NCBI RefSeq assembly: GCF_056712565.1
Contig: NZ_CM160072.1
Reading direction: 5' to 3' (one strand)
Length of the DNA: 64,000 nt
The notes beneath the pieces were generated by a model, which had not been told where the DNA came from, did no database searches, and worked only from the letters and a program-made list of their open reading frames with translations. Made by a program: the position numbers and the translations under genes. Shown here piece by piece: positions 4,925 through 39,653 of this stretch. Within the stretch, counting starts at the first letter, position 1, and the number at the start of each line of letters is the position of its first letter.

Positions 4925-5818
4925 TTATTTTTTTGCCTTTTTAGCGGCGAAATACGGCGTCCAGTCACCAGTTTCCAGCGCCTTGGCTTTCAATTTGTCG
5001 AGGTTGTTGATTACTGCGCCGTTGCTCCCCTTAACCGTCGGGGTTGTGGCTGCCGTGGTTTTTGCTTTTGGCATGATTCTGGCCTTCGATTCGATACGTT
5101 CCAGCAGACGACCAATTGCTACGGGGTTGGTAGCTTCTGCCAGTTGCTTGCGCAGTTCAGCGTTGCGACCAAGCGCCAGAACAACGATTTCCGGCTTCTC
5201 TGACTCAAACAGGATCGCGTTTTGTGTCTCGATGGGGATTTCCTCGAGTACGGCCTGCTCAGCTTCCTGATAGCCAGGAACTTTGAGAGCCTTAACACGT
5301 TGCTGATATTTGGATAATCGCTCTTGATAGGCAGCCTGAAGCTCCTGCTCCTTCTGCTTGCGAGCCATCTCCTGTTGCTGGTACTTGCCATTATCCTCTG
5401 CCCACTTAGCCATGCGTTGCTGGTAGATTTCTTCATCGAAACCGATGTCCTCATCATCCAGTTTTGGCATTCGCGGTGGTTGAGTGATTACCGGCTGCTG
5501 CTCGACGGGTTTCTGAGACTGACGCATCAGCTCTTTCAGCTCGCGGTCTTTCTCTTTAATCGTCTTGCGCAGGTGTTTTACCAGTCCATGCTCAGCGCCA
5601 TCTTCGCTGGTTGGCGAATCCAGCTTTTCGTCACCAAAGTAGAATTCCTGTTCTGATTCGTCGTCATCAGTTTCAGTAGCCTCCTCTGCATCATTGCCTG
5701 AGGACTCACTGCCATCTTCTGTTTCGACTTTTTCAGCCAGTTCGACATCATCAGGAATCTGCTCTGACGCGTCGGTTTCGATTTCAACTTCTGGTGTGTT
5801 TTCTGCCATCTGGTCCAT
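4925..5818 (-). CDS. Scaffolding protein (P22 gp8-like)
   Basis: 297-aa ORF, highly acidic N-terminus and charged helical composition, between portal and coat. Confidence 0.7.
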   Translation of the reverse strand: MDQMAENTPEVEIETDASEQIPDDVELAEKVETEDGSESSGNDAEEATETDDDESEQEFYFGDEKLDSPTSEDGAEHGLVKHLRKTIKEKDRELKELMRQSQKPVEQQPVITQPPRMPKLDDEDIGFDEEIYQQRMAKWAEDNGKYQQQEMARKQKEQELQAAYQERLSKYQQRVKALKVPGYQEAEQAVLEEIPIETQNAILFESEKPEIVVLALGRNAELRKQLAEATNPVAIGRLLERIESKARIMPKAKTTAATTPTVKGSNGAVINNLDKLKAKALETGDWTPYFAAKKAKK

Positions 5819-5908
5819 TTGTTACCCCTGTTTACTCGATGTTCAGCCCATCGGAAGGCAATAGGGTGCCAGGCCTCATAAAGACAGCCATTGCACGTTA
5901 TGGGTTAA

Positions 5909-8107
5909 TTACTGCTGTGGTTGTTGCTGAGTTGATTTTTGCAGGATGCTGCTGATGTCCATGCGCTGCGCATGGCCCTGTGCCTGACTTTTCAGGACAA
6001 GCTCTGCATCAGCACGGGCATTGTCTCCTTGCTGTTGCTGGAACTGTCCGAGCAGTTTCAGAGCCTCGCGGATATCAGATTTCTGCTGGCTATCGGCAGA
6101 TGCGAGGATTTTCACAACATTTGCCGCTGCAACCTGAGCATCAGTCTGTGCCTGGAATGCTTTAACCTGAATGGCTGCCTGCTCGTTCTGCGCTTTCTGC
6201 AATTCAGCCTGACCAGCAAGAAGCTGACCTTGCGCAGCAACCATAGCCGGATCTGGCTGACTGGCCTGTTGTTGTTTCGCCTGCTCAACCATCTGCTGTT
6301 CTTCTGGCGTTCTCGGCTTGATAACTCCAGACAGAAGCAACTGATTGCGGTTGTATTCTTTAAGGTCGTCCATCCCTTCGCCGTCCATATTGTCGAGGAT
6401 CATCGACGATACAAGGTCGTGTTTCGGCGTTCCGGGCGGGATAAGTGCCAGCATGGAAAGTAACGACTTAACCGTTGCGTCACGGCGAGTAGCGAACGAC
6501 TGACCGACATCGACAGTCACTTCATAGTTACCCTGCGAAAGGTCGTTAAGCGCGATAACCTGCCCTGTCTGACGGTCAACCACTTCACCAGTCATCAGCG
6601 CCACGTCATCGCTGCCGTCCTCATTAACGATACGCATCGGCGTATCGCTGCCATAGACTTCACGAGCCATAGAAAGCCACACAACGCCAGCGCGACGCAT
6701 GGATTTAGCCATGTTGTCCATGTAGATATAGGACTGCGTATCCATCCGGTTAAAGATGCTATCAACGGTATCGGTAGCAACGTTGCTCGGCATGTTCTCA
6801 AGCTGCGACGCACCTGTAATTTGCTGAATAGCCGTTCCGGTGTACTGCAATAGCCCGGCAAGAGCTGGAGGCATTTGTGTCGGAGGCGTATAACTGCTGA
6901 CCTGAGCCTGCGCAGTAATATCTCCGTTTTTGTTTTTCAGACTGACCATCGGCAGGAACGCCGGGCGCTTTTTGTTGCGCTCCGCCCAATGAGTGGCGAG
7001 AGGACCAGGAATCATGTCAACATCAACTACAGGAATGCCATCACCGCCAGCCTGAGTAGCGTTATCTGCAATCATGGAAACCATCAGGTTCTCAAGACGC
7101 TGTGCATCCATCGCTTTTGCTGCGTGGCCTTCGATTCGTTCCTGATTATCAACAAATGAGCGACGTCCATATACCGGGATGAGAGGAATATGTTCGCCCG
7201 GAATACGCTTCGGTTCTTCCAGCCATTCAGCGCCAGACAGAAGGCCGCAATAAACGCGGCGTTTCTTCACCGTTCGCTCGCCAATCAGTTCGAATGCACC
7301 ATCGGTCAGCTCGTCGACAATATCTTTGATTTGCTCTTCATCATAGATTGCCGTTTCTCCGCTAACAGGGTTGCGCCATGCCGTGAGCTTCACCTTCTCT
7401 ATGCGAACTTCGTAGTAGCGCCCAACATAGATGGCATCTGGCGTTGACCAGTCATATTGAGTGCCAGTCTCATCACGAGAAAGGCCTGCCGCGATGGAAT
7501 CAGGGTATTCAGCCTCGAACGCTTTAGGCGTCATGGAGAACATTTCCATAGCCCACATAGCATCAGAACGGTCATATTGCTTGCTGTCCTGATCGAAGAA
7601 GACGCATGTCGCTGGGTCGTAAACAGGAAGAAGGCTGATGCGTCGCTGCTCGTTACTTGGGTCCATTTCATCTTCGTAATCGGCACACATGCGGAAACAA
7701 CCGAATCCGCCCGTTACAGCATCATCAAATGCGTTATCACACGCTTCGCCACCTGATGTTTCCTGATAGTCAGCGCGGAATTTGCCGTTCATCTTTTTGG
7801 CTAACGCTTCCGATGCCTTGTCATCCTTCGGCCTGAATTTAACGCTGATGCGATTCTGTCGATACTCGCCAATGATGCGATCACATTCACGGGCAATCTT
7901 ATTCAGTTCAAAGCGCGGGTAATGCTCAAACCTGCCTTCATCAAATGAGTAACCAGCGTTTGTGCTGCCTTCCCACTGTGCGCCGGATACCCGGACGAAA
8001 CGTTGAGCCTCAATAATCTGCTCACGCATATCCTGCGTTGCTGACCAGGCATTATCAAAGTTGCACAGCACCTTGCGATGCCAGTCAGTCATCTTTTTTT
8101 CTGCCAT
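5909..8107 (-). CDS. Portal protein (P22 gp1-like)
   Basis: 732-aa ORF directly downstream of TerL; long Gln/Ala-rich C-terminal helical tail as in P22 portal barrel. Confidence 0.85.
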   Translation of the reverse strand: MAEKKMTDWHRKVLCNFDNAWSATQDMREQIIEAQRFVRVSGAQWEGSTNAGYSFDEGRFEHYPRFELNKIARECDRIIGEYRQNRISVKFRPKDDKASEALAKKMNGKFRADYQETSGGEACDNAFDDAVTGGFGCFRMCADYEDEMDPSNEQRRISLLPVYDPATCVFFDQDSKQYDRSDAMWAMEMFSMTPKAFEAEYPDSIAAGLSRDETGTQYDWSTPDAIYVGRYYEVRIEKVKLTAWRNPVSGETAIYDEEQIKDIVDELTDGAFELIGERTVKKRRVYCGLLSGAEWLEEPKRIPGEHIPLIPVYGRRSFVDNQERIEGHAAKAMDAQRLENLMVSMIADNATQAGGDGIPVVDVDMIPGPLATHWAERNKKRPAFLPMVSLKNKNGDITAQAQVSSYTPPTQMPPALAGLLQYTGTAIQQITGASQLENMPSNVATDTVDSIFNRMDTQSYIYMDNMAKSMRRAGVVWLSMAREVYGSDTPMRIVNEDGSDDVALMTGEVVDRQTGQVIALNDLSQGNYEVTVDVGQSFATRRDATVKSLLSMLALIPPGTPKHDLVSSMILDNMDGEGMDDLKEYNRNQLLLSGVIKPRTPEEQQMVEQAKQQQASQPDPAMVAAQGQLLAGQAELQKAQNEQAAIQVKAFQAQTDAQVAAANVVKILASADSQQKSDIREALKLLGQFQQQQGDNARADAELVLKSQAQGHAQRMDISSILQKSTQQQPQQ

Positions 8108-18659: not shown

Positions 18660-19603
18660 GCAATCCCCCTGTCTGCAAACTTCCCTTCCCGAACTCCCGT
18701 TAACGAGTCTTCTCTCAGCAGGTAATCAAAATCAGCCGTCCAGCCCGTGTCGTTGTCTCCGAAGTAAAACGGCTTGGCCTGATGCACAAACGCCCTGACA
18801 TACGCTCTGAAACCGTCCACGTTTGGCGTTTTCAGTTGCGGGATGATTTTCTTCAGGCGGCGTTTTCGTTTCTCGTTGACCGCAACAGCGTGTGGCAGTC
18901 TGTCACCGACTTCGGTGTTGTAGGCGTTCAGGAAGGATTCGTAGTCGATTCGTTCTGCCTTGCGACGTTCAGGTTTAACCTGCCCATCGCCTCCCCCATT
19001 GGGGGGTAGGGGGGTATTATTTATATTCTTGTTAATACCTTCTTGTTCATGATGTGCGGTTGTTTGTGCGGCTTCATGTGCGCTTTCATGTGCGGCATGT
19101 ACGCTGAAAGCCGCGCTATTGCTGGCTTCATCATGTGCGGCATCATGTGCGGTTGTTTGTGCGGCTTCATGTGCGGGTAAATTGTCCATTTTTTGAGCAT
19201 ATTCATGGTAATTTGTGATGGTTATCACACGGCCTTTTTGCTTCTCTCCATCAATGGAGATCATCCCCTCTTTCACAAAAACCTGAAGCATCCGCTCAAC
19301 CTGATCACGGCTTGCTGGCTTGCCATGTCTGTCGCATAACTGAAGACCTAAATCAGCTGCTGTCACAACCAGTTGACCGGGTTGCAGATGCCATTCATGA
19401 CCTTTGAAATTCGCTTTGTATGGCTTTCTGGCGGCATTCAGGAGAAGGTTTTCCCACAGGGTGCGAAGATAAACATCTTTCGCCCATGACTGTTTCAGAA
19501 TGCTCCGGTACAACGGAATGTAACCAGTTTTCTGGTTCTCCATCCTGTTGCTCCTGCGCTCGTGTGCGGCGCTGAAATCGTAGATTTTTGCTGTATTGCT
19601 CAT
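18656..19603 (-). CDS. Replication initiator (lambda O / P22 gp18-like)
   Basis: 315-aa ORF upstream of helicase; central repeated [10 protein letters not shown] peptide encoded by DNA iterons. Confidence 0.8.
19040..19190. repeat. Origin iterons inside the initiator gene
   Basis: About eight direct copies of a ~9-12 nt unit (catgtgcgg / ttgtgcgg) in two clusters. Confidence 0.6.
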
Positions 19604-19605
19604 AA

Positions 19606-19878
19606 CTACCTGCCTTGACGAAAGACCTTAAGAACATCGTTAAACTGACTTACGGATATGTCTTCTTTGAGAAGCTTTTCCAGAAATGCGTTTGGAATGA
19701 ACGTATATCCCTCCTCTTTTGGTAGAGACGGGAGCAACGCCCTCGCCTCAGCCTTCAGAAGCTCAGTTCTGGCAACTTTCACAAAAGAGATTTGAGTTCT
19801 TTCATCAATGGAACGAAGGAAGCGCAAACGCTTAGCTTCTTTGTGTGTATCAGGTGGATTAAAGCCTTTGTTTCGCAT
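19606..19878 (-). CDS. Hypothetical protein (90 aa) between cII and O-like gene
   Basis: Internal ATG at 19878 with GAGGT Shine-Dalgarno; basic protein; lambda has no gene here. Confidence 0.45.
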   Translation of the reverse strand: MRNKGFNPPDTHKEAKRLRFLRSIDERTQISFVKVARTELLKAEARALLPSLPKEEGYTFIPNAFLEKLLKEDISVSQFNDVLKVFRQGR

Positions 19879-19900
19879 ATAATTACCTCGTTGGATGTTG

Positions 19901-20194
19901 TTAAAATTCCATTTGTATTTGATCAGAACGCTCGGTTGCCGCCGGGCGTTTTTTATTGGTGAGAATCGAAGCAACTTGTCGTGCCAATCGAGCCATGTCG
20001 TCGTCGACAACACCCCATTCAAGAACAGCAAGCAGCATTGAGAACTTTGGAATCCAGTCCCTCTTCCACCTGCTGATCTGCGACTTATCAACGCCCACAG
20101 CTTCCGCTGTCTTCTCAGTTCCAAGCATTGCGATTTTGTTAAGCAACGCACTCTCGATTCTTAGAGCCTCGTTGCGTTTGTTTGCACGAACCAT
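19901..20194 (-). CDS. cII: Transcriptional activator CII
   Basis: 97-aa ORF MVRANKRNEALRIESALLNKIAMLG...QIQMEF matching recalled lambda CII; AAGGAAAT Shine-Dalgarno. Confidence 0.9.
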   Translation of the reverse strand: MVRANKRNEALRIESALLNKIAMLGTEKTAEAVGVDKSQISRWKRDWIPKFSMLLAVLEWGVVDDDMARLARQVASILTNKKRPAATERSDQIQMEF

Positions 20195-20253
20195 ATGTAA
20201 GTATTTCCTTAACAAATAAGAAGTTATGCGCATCAACTTATGCGCGTTGTATT

Positions 20254-31123: not shown

Positions 31124-32662
31124 TCACCCAACGCCTTTCGCTGTAAACGGCGGTTTCGCAAACCAAACCAAAACCGTAAGTAAGATAAAAGCAATAGCCG
31201 CCATACGGAAAATCTCATTTGCAGAAATAGAAAGTGACTGCTGAGTTATTTCATTATTAATTTCATTAAGAACTCCTGAAAGCGAACCATAGTATTTATC
31301 CATAATTTGTGACGATGAATTAAACACGGGGTTAAATTGATCGATGGTTGCTGTCAACTGACTATGGTGTAACGATTCGCGGCGTCCCCACAGTGTCATT
31401 GTCAACGACGTACCAACTGATCCTGACAAGGTGCGAAAAAAATTACTCATACTCGAGGCATTGGCAAATTTATTATCTGGCAAGCCTGAAAACGAAATCG
31501 TTGTTAAGGGTAAAAAGAAACAGGCAACGGCGAATCCCTGAAAAAACTGTGGCAAAATGATGCCTGTAAAATCAATCGTTGGCATAAATGTCACAGAACG
31601 CCAGTAATAGCAAACCGCATACATCAAAAAACTAAATGTCACCAACAACCGCATATCAATTTTGTTGCCATAACGTCCTATCAAAGGTGATATTAATAGC
31701 GGCATGATACCGATGGGCGCATAGGCAAGTCCGGCCCATATCGCATTATACCCCATCGTTTCCTGGAGTAACTGCGGCATAAGAACTATCGCTCCAGAGT
31801 AAAATAAATACGCGCATGTGATACTCACAATACCAATGGTGAAATTACGGGACTTAAACAAACTGAGGTCAAGAATCGGATTCTCTGAGGTCGACTCCCA
31901 AATGACTAAAGAGATCAGAGAAATAACTGATACTACTGTTAGTAGTATTATTGTACTCGAGTTGAACCAATCCAGATCGCGCCCTTTATCAAGCATAATT
32001 TGCAAGCCACCAACACCGAGCACTAACAGGGTCAGTCCTGGTAGATTCATTTTGACCGGTGAAGTCTCAGTTTCTCGTCCTTTAAGTAAGGTTAAGCATA
32101 ATGTCAGGACGATAATCCCCATAGGGACATTGATTAAAAATATCCAACCCCAGCTAAAGTTATCGCAAATATAGCCGCCCAATATCGGCCCACATATCGG
32201 AGCGATAATCACGGTCATTGACCATAATGCCAGAGCAAATGTTCTTTTTTCTGGTGGATAATTCCTTAATAATAAACTCTGTGACAGTGGAATTAACGGC
32301 CCCGCCATTAACCCCTGAACGACTCTAAAAAATATCAGCACATCAAGATTGGTCGATAAACTACACATTAATGAAGACAGCGAAAAAAAGGTTACTGAAA
32401 GTAAAAATAACCTTAATTCGCCTATTCTTTGTGCCAGCCTGCCGGTAACAGGGATCGCAATGGCATTTGCTACGCCAAACGAGGTGATAACCCAGGTGCC
32501 TTCGTCTGTTGATGCTCCCAGAAAGCCAGATATTGTCGGTATTGCGACGTTAGAAATAGTGGAATCCAACATTTGCATAAACGTCGCTAATGACAATGCA
32601 ATAGTGACGCACCATAACGTCCCACCGGTTAATGGTGCAGGAGTTGATTTAGTGATTGCCAT
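31124..32662 (-). CDS. emrY: MFS multidrug efflux pump EmrY
   Basis: 512-aa 14-TM MFS-like ORF downstream of emrK. Confidence 0.9.
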   Translation of the reverse strand: MAITKSTPAPLTGGTLWCVTIALSLATFMQMLDSTISNVAIPTISGFLGASTDEGTWVITSFGVANAIAIPVTGRLAQRIGELRLFLLSVTFFSLSSLMCSLSTNLDVLIFFRVVQGLMAGPLIPLSQSLLLRNYPPEKRTFALALWSMTVIIAPICGPILGGYICDNFSWGWIFLINVPMGIIVLTLCLTLLKGRETETSPVKMNLPGLTLLVLGVGGLQIMLDKGRDLDWFNSSTIILLTVVSVISLISLVIWESTSENPILDLSLFKSRNFTIGIVSITCAYLFYSGAIVLMPQLLQETMGYNAIWAGLAYAPIGIMPLLISPLIGRYGNKIDMRLLVTFSFLMYAVCYYWRSVTFMPTIDFTGIILPQFFQGFAVACFFLPLTTISFSGLPDNKFANASSMSNFFRTLSGSVGTSLTMTLWGRRESLHHSQLTATIDQFNPVFNSSSQIMDKYYGSLSGVLNEINNEITQQSLSISANEIFRMAAIAFILLTVLVWFAKPPFTAKGVG

Positions 32663-37800: not shown

Positions 37801-38452
37801 AGGATATGATGTTGATGAAGCCACTGATGGTGTGCAAGCGCTACACAAAGTCAGTATGCAACATTATGATCTGCTTATTACTGACGTTAATATGCCGAAT
37901 ATGGATGGTTTTGAGTTGACTCGCAAACTCCGTGAGCAAAATTCTTCCTTACCCATCTGGGGGCTTACAGCCAACGCACAGGCTAACGAACGTGAAAAAG
38001 GGTTAAATTGCGGCATGAACTTATGTTTGTTCAAACCGTTGACTCTGGATGTACTGAAAACACATTTAAGTCAGTTACACCAGGTTGCGCATATTGCACC
38101 TCAGTATCGCCACCTTGATATCGAGGCCCTGAAGAATAATACGGCGAATGATCTACAACTGATGCAGGAGATTCTCATGACTTTCCAGCATGAAACGCAT
38201 AAAGATCTACCCGCTGCGTTTCATGCACTAGAAGCTGGCGATAACAGAACTTTCCATCAGTGTATTCATCGCATCCACGGTGCGGCTAACATCCTGAATT
38301 TGCAAAAGTTGATTAATATTAGCCACCAGTTAGAAATAACACCTGTTTCAGATGACAGTAAGCCTGAAATTCTTCAGTTGCTGAACTCTGTAAAAGAACA
38401 CATTGCAGAGCTGGACCAGGAGATTACTGTTTTCTGTCAGCAAAATGACTAA
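34859..38452 (+). CDS. evgS: Hybrid sensor kinase EvgS
   Basis: 1197-aa ORF with periplasmic solute-binding-like domains, HisKA/HATPase, receiver and HPt domains. Confidence 0.95.
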   Translation: MKFLPYIFLLCCGLWSTISFADGDYIEYRGISSNNRVTLDPLRLSNKELRWLASKKNLVIAVHKSQTATLLHTDSQQRIRGINADYLNLLKRALNIKLTLREYADHQKAMDALEDGEVDIVLSHLVASPPLNDDIAATNPLIITFPALVTTLHDSMRPLTSSKPVNIARVANYPPDEVIHQSFPKATIISFTNLYQALASVSAGQNDYFIGSNIITSSMISRYFTHSLNVVKYYNSPRQYNFLLTRKDSIVLNEVLNRFVDALTNEVRYEVSQNWLDTGNLAFLNKPLELTEHEKQWIKQHPDLKVLENPYSPPYSMTDETGSVRGVMGDILNIITLQTGLNFSPITVSHNIHAGTQLNPGGWDILPAAIYSEDRENNVSFAEVFITTPYVFVMQKAPDSEQTLKKGMKVAIPYYYELHSQLKEMYPEVEWIKVDNASAAFHKVKEGELDALVATQLNSRYMIDHYYPNELYHFLIPGVQNASLSFAFPRGEPELKDIINKALNAIPPSEVLRLTEKWIKMPNVTIDTWDLYSEQFYIVTTLSVLLVGSSLLWGFYLLRSVRRRKVIQGDLENQISFRKALSDSLPNPTYVVNWQGNVISHNSAFEHYFTDDYYKNAMLPLENSESPFKDVFSNTHEVTAETKENRTIYTQVFEIDNGIEKRCINHWHTLCNLPASEHAVYICGWQDITETRDLIHALEVERNKAINATVAKSQFLATMSHEIRTPISSIMGFLELLSGSGLSKEQRVEAISLAYATGQSLLGLIGEILDVDKIESGNYQLQPQWVDIPTLVQNTCHSFAAIAASKSIALSCSSTLPERYLVKIDPQAFKQVLSNLLSNALKFTTEGAVKITTSLGHIDDNHAVIKMTIMDSGSGLSQEEQQQLFKRYSQTSAGRQQTGSGLGLMICKELIKNMQGDLSLESHPGIGTIFTITIPVEITQQVAAVEAKAEQPITLPEKLSILIADDHPTNRLLLKRQLNLLGYDVDEATDGVQALHKVSMQHYDLLITDVNMPNMDGFELTRKLREQNSSLPIWGLTANAQANEREKGLNCGMNLCLFKPLTLDVLKTHLSQLHQVAHIAPQYRHLDIEALKNNTANDLQLMQEILMTFQHETHKDLPAAFHALEAGDNRTFHQCIHRIHGAANILNLQKLINISHQLEITPVSDDSKPEILQLLNSVKEHIAELDQEITVFCQQND

Positions 38453-38458
38453 ATAGCG

Positions 38459-38486
38459 GCTCCCACAATGTTCAAATGTGGGAGCT
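38459..38486. terminator. Hairpin between convergent evgS and yfdE
   Basis: GCTCCCACA-10 nt-TGTGGGAGC followed by TATTT. Confidence 0.4.
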
Positions 38487-38507
38487 ATTTACCAGCACAT
38501 CTTACAT

Positions 38508-39653
38508 TTATGATGAGAACTCCTGGCGAATTTGTTCCCCATGCTGGTCGAGCGTTGCCGCTCCCGGCATAACATGCGGGTCCGCGCAGCCGCTGATTTT
38601 TATCGGATTACCCGGCATCATTATTCCCCCGGCTTCAATCAACATATTTCTCGCCTGAGTTTGTGGTAAATTAATGGCCTCAGCCACACTTAATAACGGC
38701 GCGACGGGCACACCAACTTCATGTATTCTGGCTAACCAAACTTCAGCTGCCTGCGTTTTTAACGTCCGCTCAATATATTGTTTAAGAATAGCCTGGTTTT
38801 GTACGCGTAAAATATTGCTGCTAAATCGGGGATCATTAACCAGTTCTGTAAGCTCCAGTGCCTGGCATAACACAGAAAAAAGCTTGTCATTACCACAACA
38901 AATCGTAATCGGCTTATCCTGAGTATCGAAAACATCAAAAGGTGCCATGTAGGGATGGCGATTTCCCAGGCGTTGTGGTGACTTCCCAGTCGCGATATAT
39001 GCCATCAGTCCATGCTCCAGAAAACTCAGAGTGGCATCAAACATCGCTATATCGACATGCGCCCCTCTCTGGCTCTTTTCGCGGCCATAAAGTGCACTCA
39101 CTATTCCACTGAATAAATAAACACCGCCACAGAGATCCGCAAGAGAGGTACCAACGCGCACTGGCGGAGCATCAGGGTATCCTGTTTCCATCATTATCCC
39201 GCTCATTGCCTGAATGATGGTATCGTAGGCAGGAGCATCTTTTAGCGGACCGGTATGTCCGAAACCTGACGATGAAGCATATATAAGGCGCGGGTTGATT
39301 TCTTGTAGCGTTTCCCATGAAAACCCCAGTTTTTCCATTGTACCTGGGCGAAAATTCTCAGCTAATACATCCGCTTGTTTAAGCATATTTATAAATATAC
39401 TTTTATCGTGATCATTCTTTAAATCAAGAACCACACTCTCTTTGCCATGATTAATAAAACTGTAATAGAGTGACTGTCCATCCACATAGGGACCAAATGT
39501 GCGGGTATCATCACCATGACCCGGCGGCTCAACTTTAATTACCCTTGCACCCATATTACAAAGAAGTTGAGTTCCGAAAGGCCCATTAAGGACATGCGTC
39601 ATATCGATAACTAATAAGCCTTCAAACGGCCCTTTGCATTCATTATTTGTCAT
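38508..39653 (-). CDS. yfdE: Acetyl-CoA:oxalate CoA-transferase (family III)
   Basis: ORF matches recalled YfdE; start at internal ATG (381 aa). Confidence 0.85.
   Translation of the reverse strand: MTNNECKGPFEGLLVIDMTHVLNGPFGTQLLCNMGARVIKVEPPGHGDDTRTFGPYVDGQSLYYSFINHGKESVVLDLKNDHDKSIFINMLKQADVLAENFRPGTMEKLGFSWETLQEINPRLIYASSSGFGHTGPLKDAPAYDTIIQAMSGIMMETGYPDAPPVRVGTSLADLCGGVYLFSGIVSALYGREKSQRGAHVDIAMFDATLSFLEHGLMAYIATGKSPQRLGNRHPYMAPFDVFDTQDKPITICCGNDKLFSVLCQALELTELVNDPRFSSNILRVQNQAILKQYIERTLKTQAAEVWLARIHEVGVPVAPLLSVAEAINLPQTQARNMLIEAGGIMMPGNPIKISGCADPHVMPGAATLDQHGEQIRQEFSS

Follow-up and report, generated by a model that had tools for sequence, protein, structure and literature searches.

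The DNA analyzed here, a window of 64,000 nucleotides, carries a lambdoid prophage whose early-right operon lies on the minus strand. The operon includes a P22-type cro, a lambda-type cII, an O-like replication initiator and a DnaB-like replicative helicase (Table 1), and the original prediction had singled out a 90-aa ORF (hereafter ORF90) located between cII and the initiator. This arrangement is confirmed, and so is the comparison with lambda, where O (38686-39585) comes directly after cII (38360-38653). The 401 bases around ORF90 are 100% identical to coliphage CUS-3, a P22-like Lederbergvirus (E. coli K1 strain RS218). Across the full 64 kb of the window, neither a tRNA nor a tmRNA gene was detected, nor did any Rfam family reach the gathering threshold; hence there is no tRNA gene in it to mark the prophage attachment site. 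Between cro and cII (20228-20245), where the nutR boxB hairpin is found in lambda and P22, the minus strand has a perfect stem of 6 bp closed by a 6-nt loop (GCGCAT-AAGTTG-ATGCGC).

Table 1. Features of the ORF90 locus, in coordinates of the window
Feature	Position	Strand	Remarks
cI	20569-21219	+	HTH_3 and Peptidase_S24
PR-like promoter	20546-20519	-	
P22-type cro	20303-20488	-	
Lambda-type cII	19901-20194	-	Pfam Phage_CII, E 5e-48; last ~18 codons overlap the oop antisense RNA
Oop-like antisense unit	19878-19957	+	Po -10 TATAAT and terminator
Shine-Dalgarno of ORF90	19886-19889	-	GAGG, 7 nt 5' of the ORF90 ATG; read from the sequence
ORF90 (90-aa basic protein)	19606-19878	-	ATG...TAG, 90 codons plus stop
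Codons 10-51 of ORF90	19726-19851	-	Predicted single long basic alpha helix (AlphaFold2); residues 34-51 highly conserved
Codons 52-88 of ORF90	19615-19725	-	Homologous to lambda-type O residues 23-59 (hhalign, Pfam, PHROG, BLASTP)
Coupling junction	19601-19614	-	...GGC AGG TAG TT ATG; ORF90 stop 2 nt before O start
O-like replication initiator, 315 aa	18656-19603	-	Phage_rep_O, E 3e-15
Origin iterons	19046-19188	.	TCATGTGCGG-type repeats, families D1 and D2, inside the O gene
DnaB-like replicative helicase, 458 aa	17283-18659	-	P22 gene 12 type; DnaB_C, E 1e-77

Coding status and starts of ORF90 and O

When ORF90 homologues are compared, pN/pS is 0.20 in the ORF90 frame vs. 1.39 and 1.54 in two shifted frames. 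The differences fall mostly on third codon positions (e.g., 15/13/50), with synonymous sites near saturation (pS 0.55-0.85) and pN of 0.06-0.34. Each of three segments of the protein gives a pN/pS of 0.28-0.40, i.e., all are constrained, and homologues of 72-93 aa are traceable down to ~41% identity. Thus, judging from these comparisons, ORF90 is a genuine conserved gene under purifying selection, and the reservation attached to the original prediction, that the ORF might not be conserved, no longer applies. The encoded protein is indeed basic, as claimed, with a pI of 9.99 and a net charge of approximately +5.6.

Upstream of ORF90, the frame stays open through cII, which is read in another frame, yielding a 181-aa “ORF”; this continuation accounts for the extended versions of 120-164 aa that are reported by some gene callers (P0001, P0002, P0035). 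We place the start at 19878 because the N-terminus MRNKGF is conserved and is preceded by a Shine-Dalgarno sequence, whose context, GAGGTAATTATATG, is retained among divergent homologues. The gene accordingly has the ribosome-binding site of its own that had been ascribed to it.

The start of the downstream O gene is annotated in two ways, at the ATG at 19603 in the CUS-3 record (315 aa) vs. an internal ATG at 19543 in the RefSeq PGAP annotation (UTI89; 295 aa). The internal ATG, 60 nt downstream, has an AGGAG of its own. The N-terminal peptide read from the upstream start resembles MTNTAKILNF of lambda O, and in one distant locus (L018) the position of the internal ATG is occupied by CTG and the upstream peptide is kept. 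Given this substitution and the conserved, lambda-O-like leader of 20 residues, the upstream start is probably real; two O isoforms, from 19603 and 19543, may exist.

The TCATGTGCGG-type iterons of the origin, about eight copies with a 12-nt spacing, also encode the repetitive His/Ala-rich linker of O, and one further copy (91%) is located in the O leader, at 19560-19570. No iterons or other repeats were found inside ORF90, the iterons being confined to the O gene.

The helicase gene 3' of O is split in some relatives by an insert of ~1 kb around residues 202-212, namely in L002 (Stx2a phage 981509) and in 9 of 80 IMG/VR loci (71 with room for the gene), for example in L025 at 5220-7610. The two tblastn pieces overlap at the insert, and a single long “DNA helicase” is annotated in Stx2a phages. 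This insert, which looks intein-like, is absent from the window copy.

Transcription, the oop-like unit and the replication module

On the ORF90 strand, no terminator-like site was detected between the PR-like promoter and O. A scan of the coding strand from PR to O found no consensus promoter either, with the caveat that such scans are weak evidence. The ribosome-binding purines of O lie within the last ORF90 codons. In distant homologues the stop and start overlap, as ATGA in L016 and L017 and by 8 nt in L018. This stop-start geometry fits translational coupling of the two genes. Because there is no terminator before O and the ORF90 stop is 2 nt from the O start, expression together with the replication genes from PR, as originally proposed, is the natural reading of the locus. 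By the same token, ORF90, flanked by neither a terminator nor a consensus promoter of its own, is unlikely to be a self-contained moron. A programmed frameshift yielding an ORF90-O fusion was considered and rejected: the junction lacks a slippery heptamer, and the offset between the two frames is not constant among loci, being -1 in the window but +1 in L018.

The start of ORF90 coincides with an antisense element. A perfect -10 box, TATAAT (19878-19883, plus strand), overlaps the start codon and is kept in all 12 family loci. The predicted oop-like transcript would begin at ~19890 and extend to a terminator stem at 19925-19952 followed by a T run, ~40 nt past the TATAAT. This terminator, identical to that of lambda, overlaps the last ~18 cII codons and is the sole strong terminator of the interval, on the strand opposite to ORF90. 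The oop-like unit matches no Rfam family. The joint is organized as in lambda, with the cII C-terminal tail, the oop terminator and the -10 box over the first start codon after cII, and when the window, lambda, P22 and mEp213 are aligned, their first ORFs after cII have a common start position. In lambda this ORF is O itself, whereas in the window it is ORF90, with O next. The original prediction had named a tR1-type terminator without translation as an outcome that would overturn it. This choice was misplaced, since in lambda tR1 is located between cro and cII, and the cII-O joint has the antisense oop RNA.

The gene order cII - ORF90 - O-like - DnaB-like was found in 12 of 12 divergent loci that were read, and the same order of cII, ORF, O and DnaB recurs in every locus read in the suggested synteny survey, including 80 IMG/VR loci with near-identical ORF90. 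When downstream counts are limited to the loci with room, the same O N-domain is encoded immediately 3' of ORF90 in 76 of 76, and a DnaB-type helicase is present in 71 of 71, lambda P in none. In the phage collection, ORF90 and the window-type full-length O are each found in 57 records. The cII of the 80 loci is of lambda type in 51, of Stx type in 27 and of neither type in 2, such that identical ORF90 sequences follow two unrelated cII bodies. Given that the cII body swaps while ORF90 stays identical, ORF90 belongs to the replication module rather than to the immunity module. This linkage does not extend to fixed partner types: ORF90 variants reassort with O N-domain and helicase types, as illustrated by L008, whose ORF90 is nearer to those of L009 and L004, yet which has the O type of the window.

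The lambda-type and Stx-type cII bodies are unrelated, yet they have a common C-terminal tail, TNKKRP..TERSDQIQMEF (~18 residues), which overlaps oop (19901-19960 in the window; also L002 and L003). Immunity and replication modules apparently recombine inside the 3' end of cII.

The ORF90 family and the slot between cII and O

The profile search that had been recommended for the peptide retrieves PHROG 2519 over the full length (E 1.9e-57; all 90 residues aligned with the 90 positions of the profile), and ORF90 is thus a member of this family. A word-indexed search of 5.8 billion proteins combined with a full HMMER scan of 1.84 billion representatives recovers homologues from enterobacteria only. 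The family is small, with about five full-length clusters at 50% identity, and its members are 86-93 aa long except for two (62 and 72 aa). ORF90 is mostly 100% identical among the 57 phage records, of which 48 are Stx2a-converting phages and one is Stx2-converting (49 in total); identical copies are found in CUS-3, JEP4, TL-2011a and the 48 Stx2a phage records. Among complete E. coli genomes, 278 of 5426 (~5%) encode ORF90, including UTI89 and the type strain, with up to three copies per genome. A homologue with 74% identity, together with an O gene, is present in the 2.7-kb GenBank entry OR850084.1 (hits H96 and H116), “Staphylococcus phage SA 1298 Kay”; given that this homologue is of enterobacterial lambdoid kind, the entry is probably mislabelled or contaminated.

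The gene is already known as a hypothetical protein in RefSeq (WP_001244621.1) and as a PHROG, and it is also annotated in the records of Kapi1 (gp024), JEP4, HF4s and TL-2011a. The Kapi1 annotation flags a CDD Phage_rep_O motif, and one Salmonella record names a homologue “replication protein.” No NCBIfam family covers ORF90, a PADLOC search gave a JetB match at E 0.02 alone, which we take as noise, and a sequence-profile search of the PDB gave no match even at E 10. Our literature search returned nothing on orf48 function, DUF2740, phrog_2519 or WP_001244621 and no experiment on the ORF90 protein, and the Stx2a phage subtype papers do not mention ORF90.

The description of ORF90 as an extra gene is valid relative to lambda but does not hold among lambdoid phages in which the O-like initiator is combined with a DnaB-type helicase. 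In these, a filled slot between cII and O is the rule, and annotation of such slot genes goes back to the P22 and HK97 genomes. Three unrelated families of small basic ORFs occupy the slot in modules that combine P22-type O with DnaB. Besides ORF90, these are P22 orf48 (DUF2740, phrog_1913; 127 phage records) and HK97 gp53/mEp213_055 (phrog_1331; 97 records; present in HK97, mEp213 and Stx2-1717), each in a different PHROG. Like ORF90, Orf48 and gp53 start at the Po/oop joint after cII, and both are small and even more basic (pI 10.4-10.7 vs. 10.0). They overlap the start of the O-like gene, which is followed by the DnaB-type helicase gene. They are half the length of ORF90, lack the O-like segment described below and show no demonstrable homology to it. 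By position ORF90 corresponds to DUF2740, in that it comes first after cII/oop and abuts an O-like gene with a DnaB-type helicase gene behind it. A by-eye resemblance between the N-termini of ORF90 and P22 Orf48 (HK..R.RFL.S) was rejected because hhalign gave a probability of 13% with P22 Orf48 as a single sequence and of 1.2% with the DUF2740 family, and none of 18 ORF90 family members matches the DUF2740 Pfam model at E<=1.

In Klebsiella and Yersinia phages with O N-domains 75-81% identical to that of the window, the slot holds a 265-aa DNA-binding protein or a KilAC antirepressor, and the partner is of lambda P type. Since the same O N-domain occurs in these phages without ORF90, and the P22 and HK97 modules use unrelated small ORFs, ORF90 is not universally required for this kind of initiator. 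Taken together, ORF90 is real but ordinary for its slot.

Relationship with lambda-type O and possible functions

The C-terminal part of ORF90 is related to the very start of the N-terminal origin-binding domain of lambda O, P22 gp18 and HK97 gp54. In an hhalign comparison of the ORF90 family alignment with an alignment of lambda/P22/HK97-type O, residues 52-88 match O residues 23-59 with a probability of 84.7% (P 6.7e-6). Of 18 family members, 16 match the Pfam family PF04492 (Phage_rep_O) at positions 6-39, with a best E of 5.2e-5, whereas no other Pfam family is matched by more than 3; the window protein itself scores 14.6 bits (E 0.048), below the gathering threshold of 28.7 bits. The profile phrog_678 matches ORF90 at E 0.0015, and all non-self Pfam and PHROG matches are to O-like initiator families, with residues ~54-88 aligned to the start of the O domain. 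BLASTP aligns ORF90 residues 55-88 with residues 26-59 of lambda O (E 0.005) and 25-58 of P22 gp18, and residues 25-88 with residues 8-57 of mEp213 O. The residues that are invariant in the family, G57, N63, D73, Q78, F79 and L83, are those common to ORF90 and lambda O, in the pattern GY..N..LE....D...QF..L...R of the alignment with lambda O residues 23-59. The similarity ends, with ORF90 itself, just before the conserved motif KTYGxNK (KTYGWNKP in lambda O). ORF90 covers ~35 of the ~95 positions of the winged-helix domain and therefore does not contain a complete one; the recognition helix and the wing are absent, as are the linker and the helicase-recruiting C-terminal domain of the O proteins. 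Conversely, the 51-residue N-terminal region has no counterpart in lambda-type O. Thus, on statistical grounds, the C-terminal third of ORF90 is a truncated segment of lambda-type O.

The possibility that ORF90 arose by duplication of its own downstream O was rejected, given an hhalign P of 0.2 and no BLASTP match in the right region. Because the segment has no detectable relation to the cognate O, it does not seem to be a copy of the neighboring gene. A full-length parent with the ORF90 N-terminus was not found among the 1.84 billion representatives; the long hits (P0041, P0045) match short stretches only.

AlphaFold2, run on an alignment of 18 sequences, yields a confident model (mean pLDDT 83.8, pTM 0.62) in which a long helix spans residues 10-51; a short hairpin (54-59) comes next, and then two short helices (63-71 and 76-86). 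Fold searches returned only long-helix noise and no informative structural neighbor.

We propose, tentatively and with somewhat less than even confidence, that ORF90 is an accessory factor or modulator of O-dependent initiation that acts by protein-protein contact. ORF90 is the first cistron of the replication module, which consists of Po/oop, ORF90, the O-like initiator and the DnaB-like helicase, in that order. Under this proposal, ORF90 would be transcribed from PR together with cro and cII and translated from its own Shine-Dalgarno sequence, and the terminating ribosomes would be passed to the O start 2 nt downstream. The protein itself is a chimera of the predicted long helix and the truncated first strand and two helices of the origin-binding domain of lambda-type O. 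Lacking the recognition helix and the wing, it presumably cannot read the iterons itself, but its long helix and O-derived helices could serve for binding to O or to the complex of O with the origin. Such binding might tune how the initiation complex, which recruits the DnaB-type helicase of the phage, is put together. Several observations argue against a strict partnership of this kind: the similarity of the O-like segment is to lambda-type O and not to the O encoded next to it, this type of O N-domain occurs without ORF90 in the Klebsiella and Yersinia phages, and variants of ORF90 reassort with O and helicase types. The lack of covariation with the type of O N-domain speaks against a tight, specific contact with the DNA-binding domain of O.

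Several alternatives have to be considered. The interval might not be a gene at all but a non-coding regulatory region of the tR1 kind that contains an accidental ORF, in line with the lack of annotation in the CUS-3 GenBank record and with a weak 5-bp hairpin with a T-rich tail at 19820-19833. The hairpin, however, lies on the strand opposite to ORF90, the coding strand has no terminator-like site, and RefSeq and several phage records annotate the gene. Together with the codon-position pattern, the pN/pS values, the full-length PHROG match and the conservation down to ~41% identity, this makes the chance of an accidental ORF negligible and, as far as comparative data allow, excludes the reading that the region is not translated. 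A translated but inert peptide is a different matter. Relative to Po and oop, ORF90 has exactly the start position of lambda O; it ends in a lambda-type O fragment cut off just before KTYGxNK, and it abuts the O start, as would be expected of a lambda-type O stump left behind when another O-helicase cassette recombined in at approximately codon 60, and kept only for ribosome delivery and for the Po promoter. But a mere spacer would not keep its amino acid sequence as all three ORF90 segments do while synonymous sites approach saturation; the narrow length range of the family and the apparent lack of a parent O with the N-terminal helix among the 1.84 billion representatives also argue against such a relic, which we regard as quite improbable.

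It is also conceivable that ORF90 is an interchangeable small early gene with a function unrelated to replication, acting on the host or on lysogeny control (e.g., on a protease, a nucleoid protein or a defense system) from a recombination-tolerant slot. The unrelated genes that fill the slot elsewhere (DUF2740, gp53, the 265-aa DNA-binding protein, the KilAC antirepressor) are compatible with this view, as are the reassortment of ORF90 variants with O N-domain and helicase types and the invariable location of ORF90 just 3' of a cII gene. We nevertheless consider it unlikely, given the derivation of the C-terminal third from an initiator protein, the lack of a promoter or terminator of its own in a gene that, by its geometry, is translationally coupled to O, and the identity of ORF90 behind two unrelated cII bodies, which argues against a tie to the immunity/lysogeny module; the defense-system and NCBIfam searches described above do not point in this direction either. 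Finally, the match of the O-like segment to lambda-type rather than cognate O, combined with the loss of the DNA-reading half of the domain, raises the prospect of a “headless” decoy that traps the lambda/P22/HK97-type O of co-infecting or co-resident phages in dead-end complexes and so favors the divergent O of its own phage. Several lambdoid prophages often reside in one E. coli genome (up to three copies of ORF90 alone), in line with this idea. However, the argument is purely inferential, with the role of O residues 23-59 in O-O contacts being an assumption, and ORF90 is located in a repressed early operon, which would restrict its action to lytic growth; we give the decoy a slender chance.

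The modulator proposal and the decoy can be combined in a more specific, speculative scenario that we deem unlikely as a whole, namely, that a “headless” piece of a lambda-type initiator was domesticated as ORF90 and forms mixed complexes with O, either tuning the phage's own initiation or serving as a dominant-negative weapon against rival lambda/P22/HK97-type initiators. If so, the small, basic and unrelated ORFs that P22 and HK97 have in this slot would be analogous initiator-directed factors. ORF90 would be of note mainly if this initiator-fragment idea proves functional. The Stx2a phages of O157 are divided into subtypes by their type of replication module, and these subtypes correlate with toxin production (PMC4645166). 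Since these subtypes follow the replication module and ORF90 is predicted to be co-translated with the initiator, it is a reasonable candidate for a modifier of phage replication efficiency.

New here are the coupling geometry, the evidence of purifying selection, the placement of ORF90 in the replication module and the statistically supported recognition that its C-terminal third is a truncated piece of lambda-type O. Should ORF90 simply accompany O, the outcome is routine annotation, namely a CDS missing from CUS-3 and the corrected upstream start of O, a gene that RefSeq PGAP has shortened. The CUS-3 reference record (CP000711.1) has no CDS for ORF90 at 31677-31946, and its cII is annotated from an upstream ATG (381 nt), not as the lambda-equivalent 294 nt.
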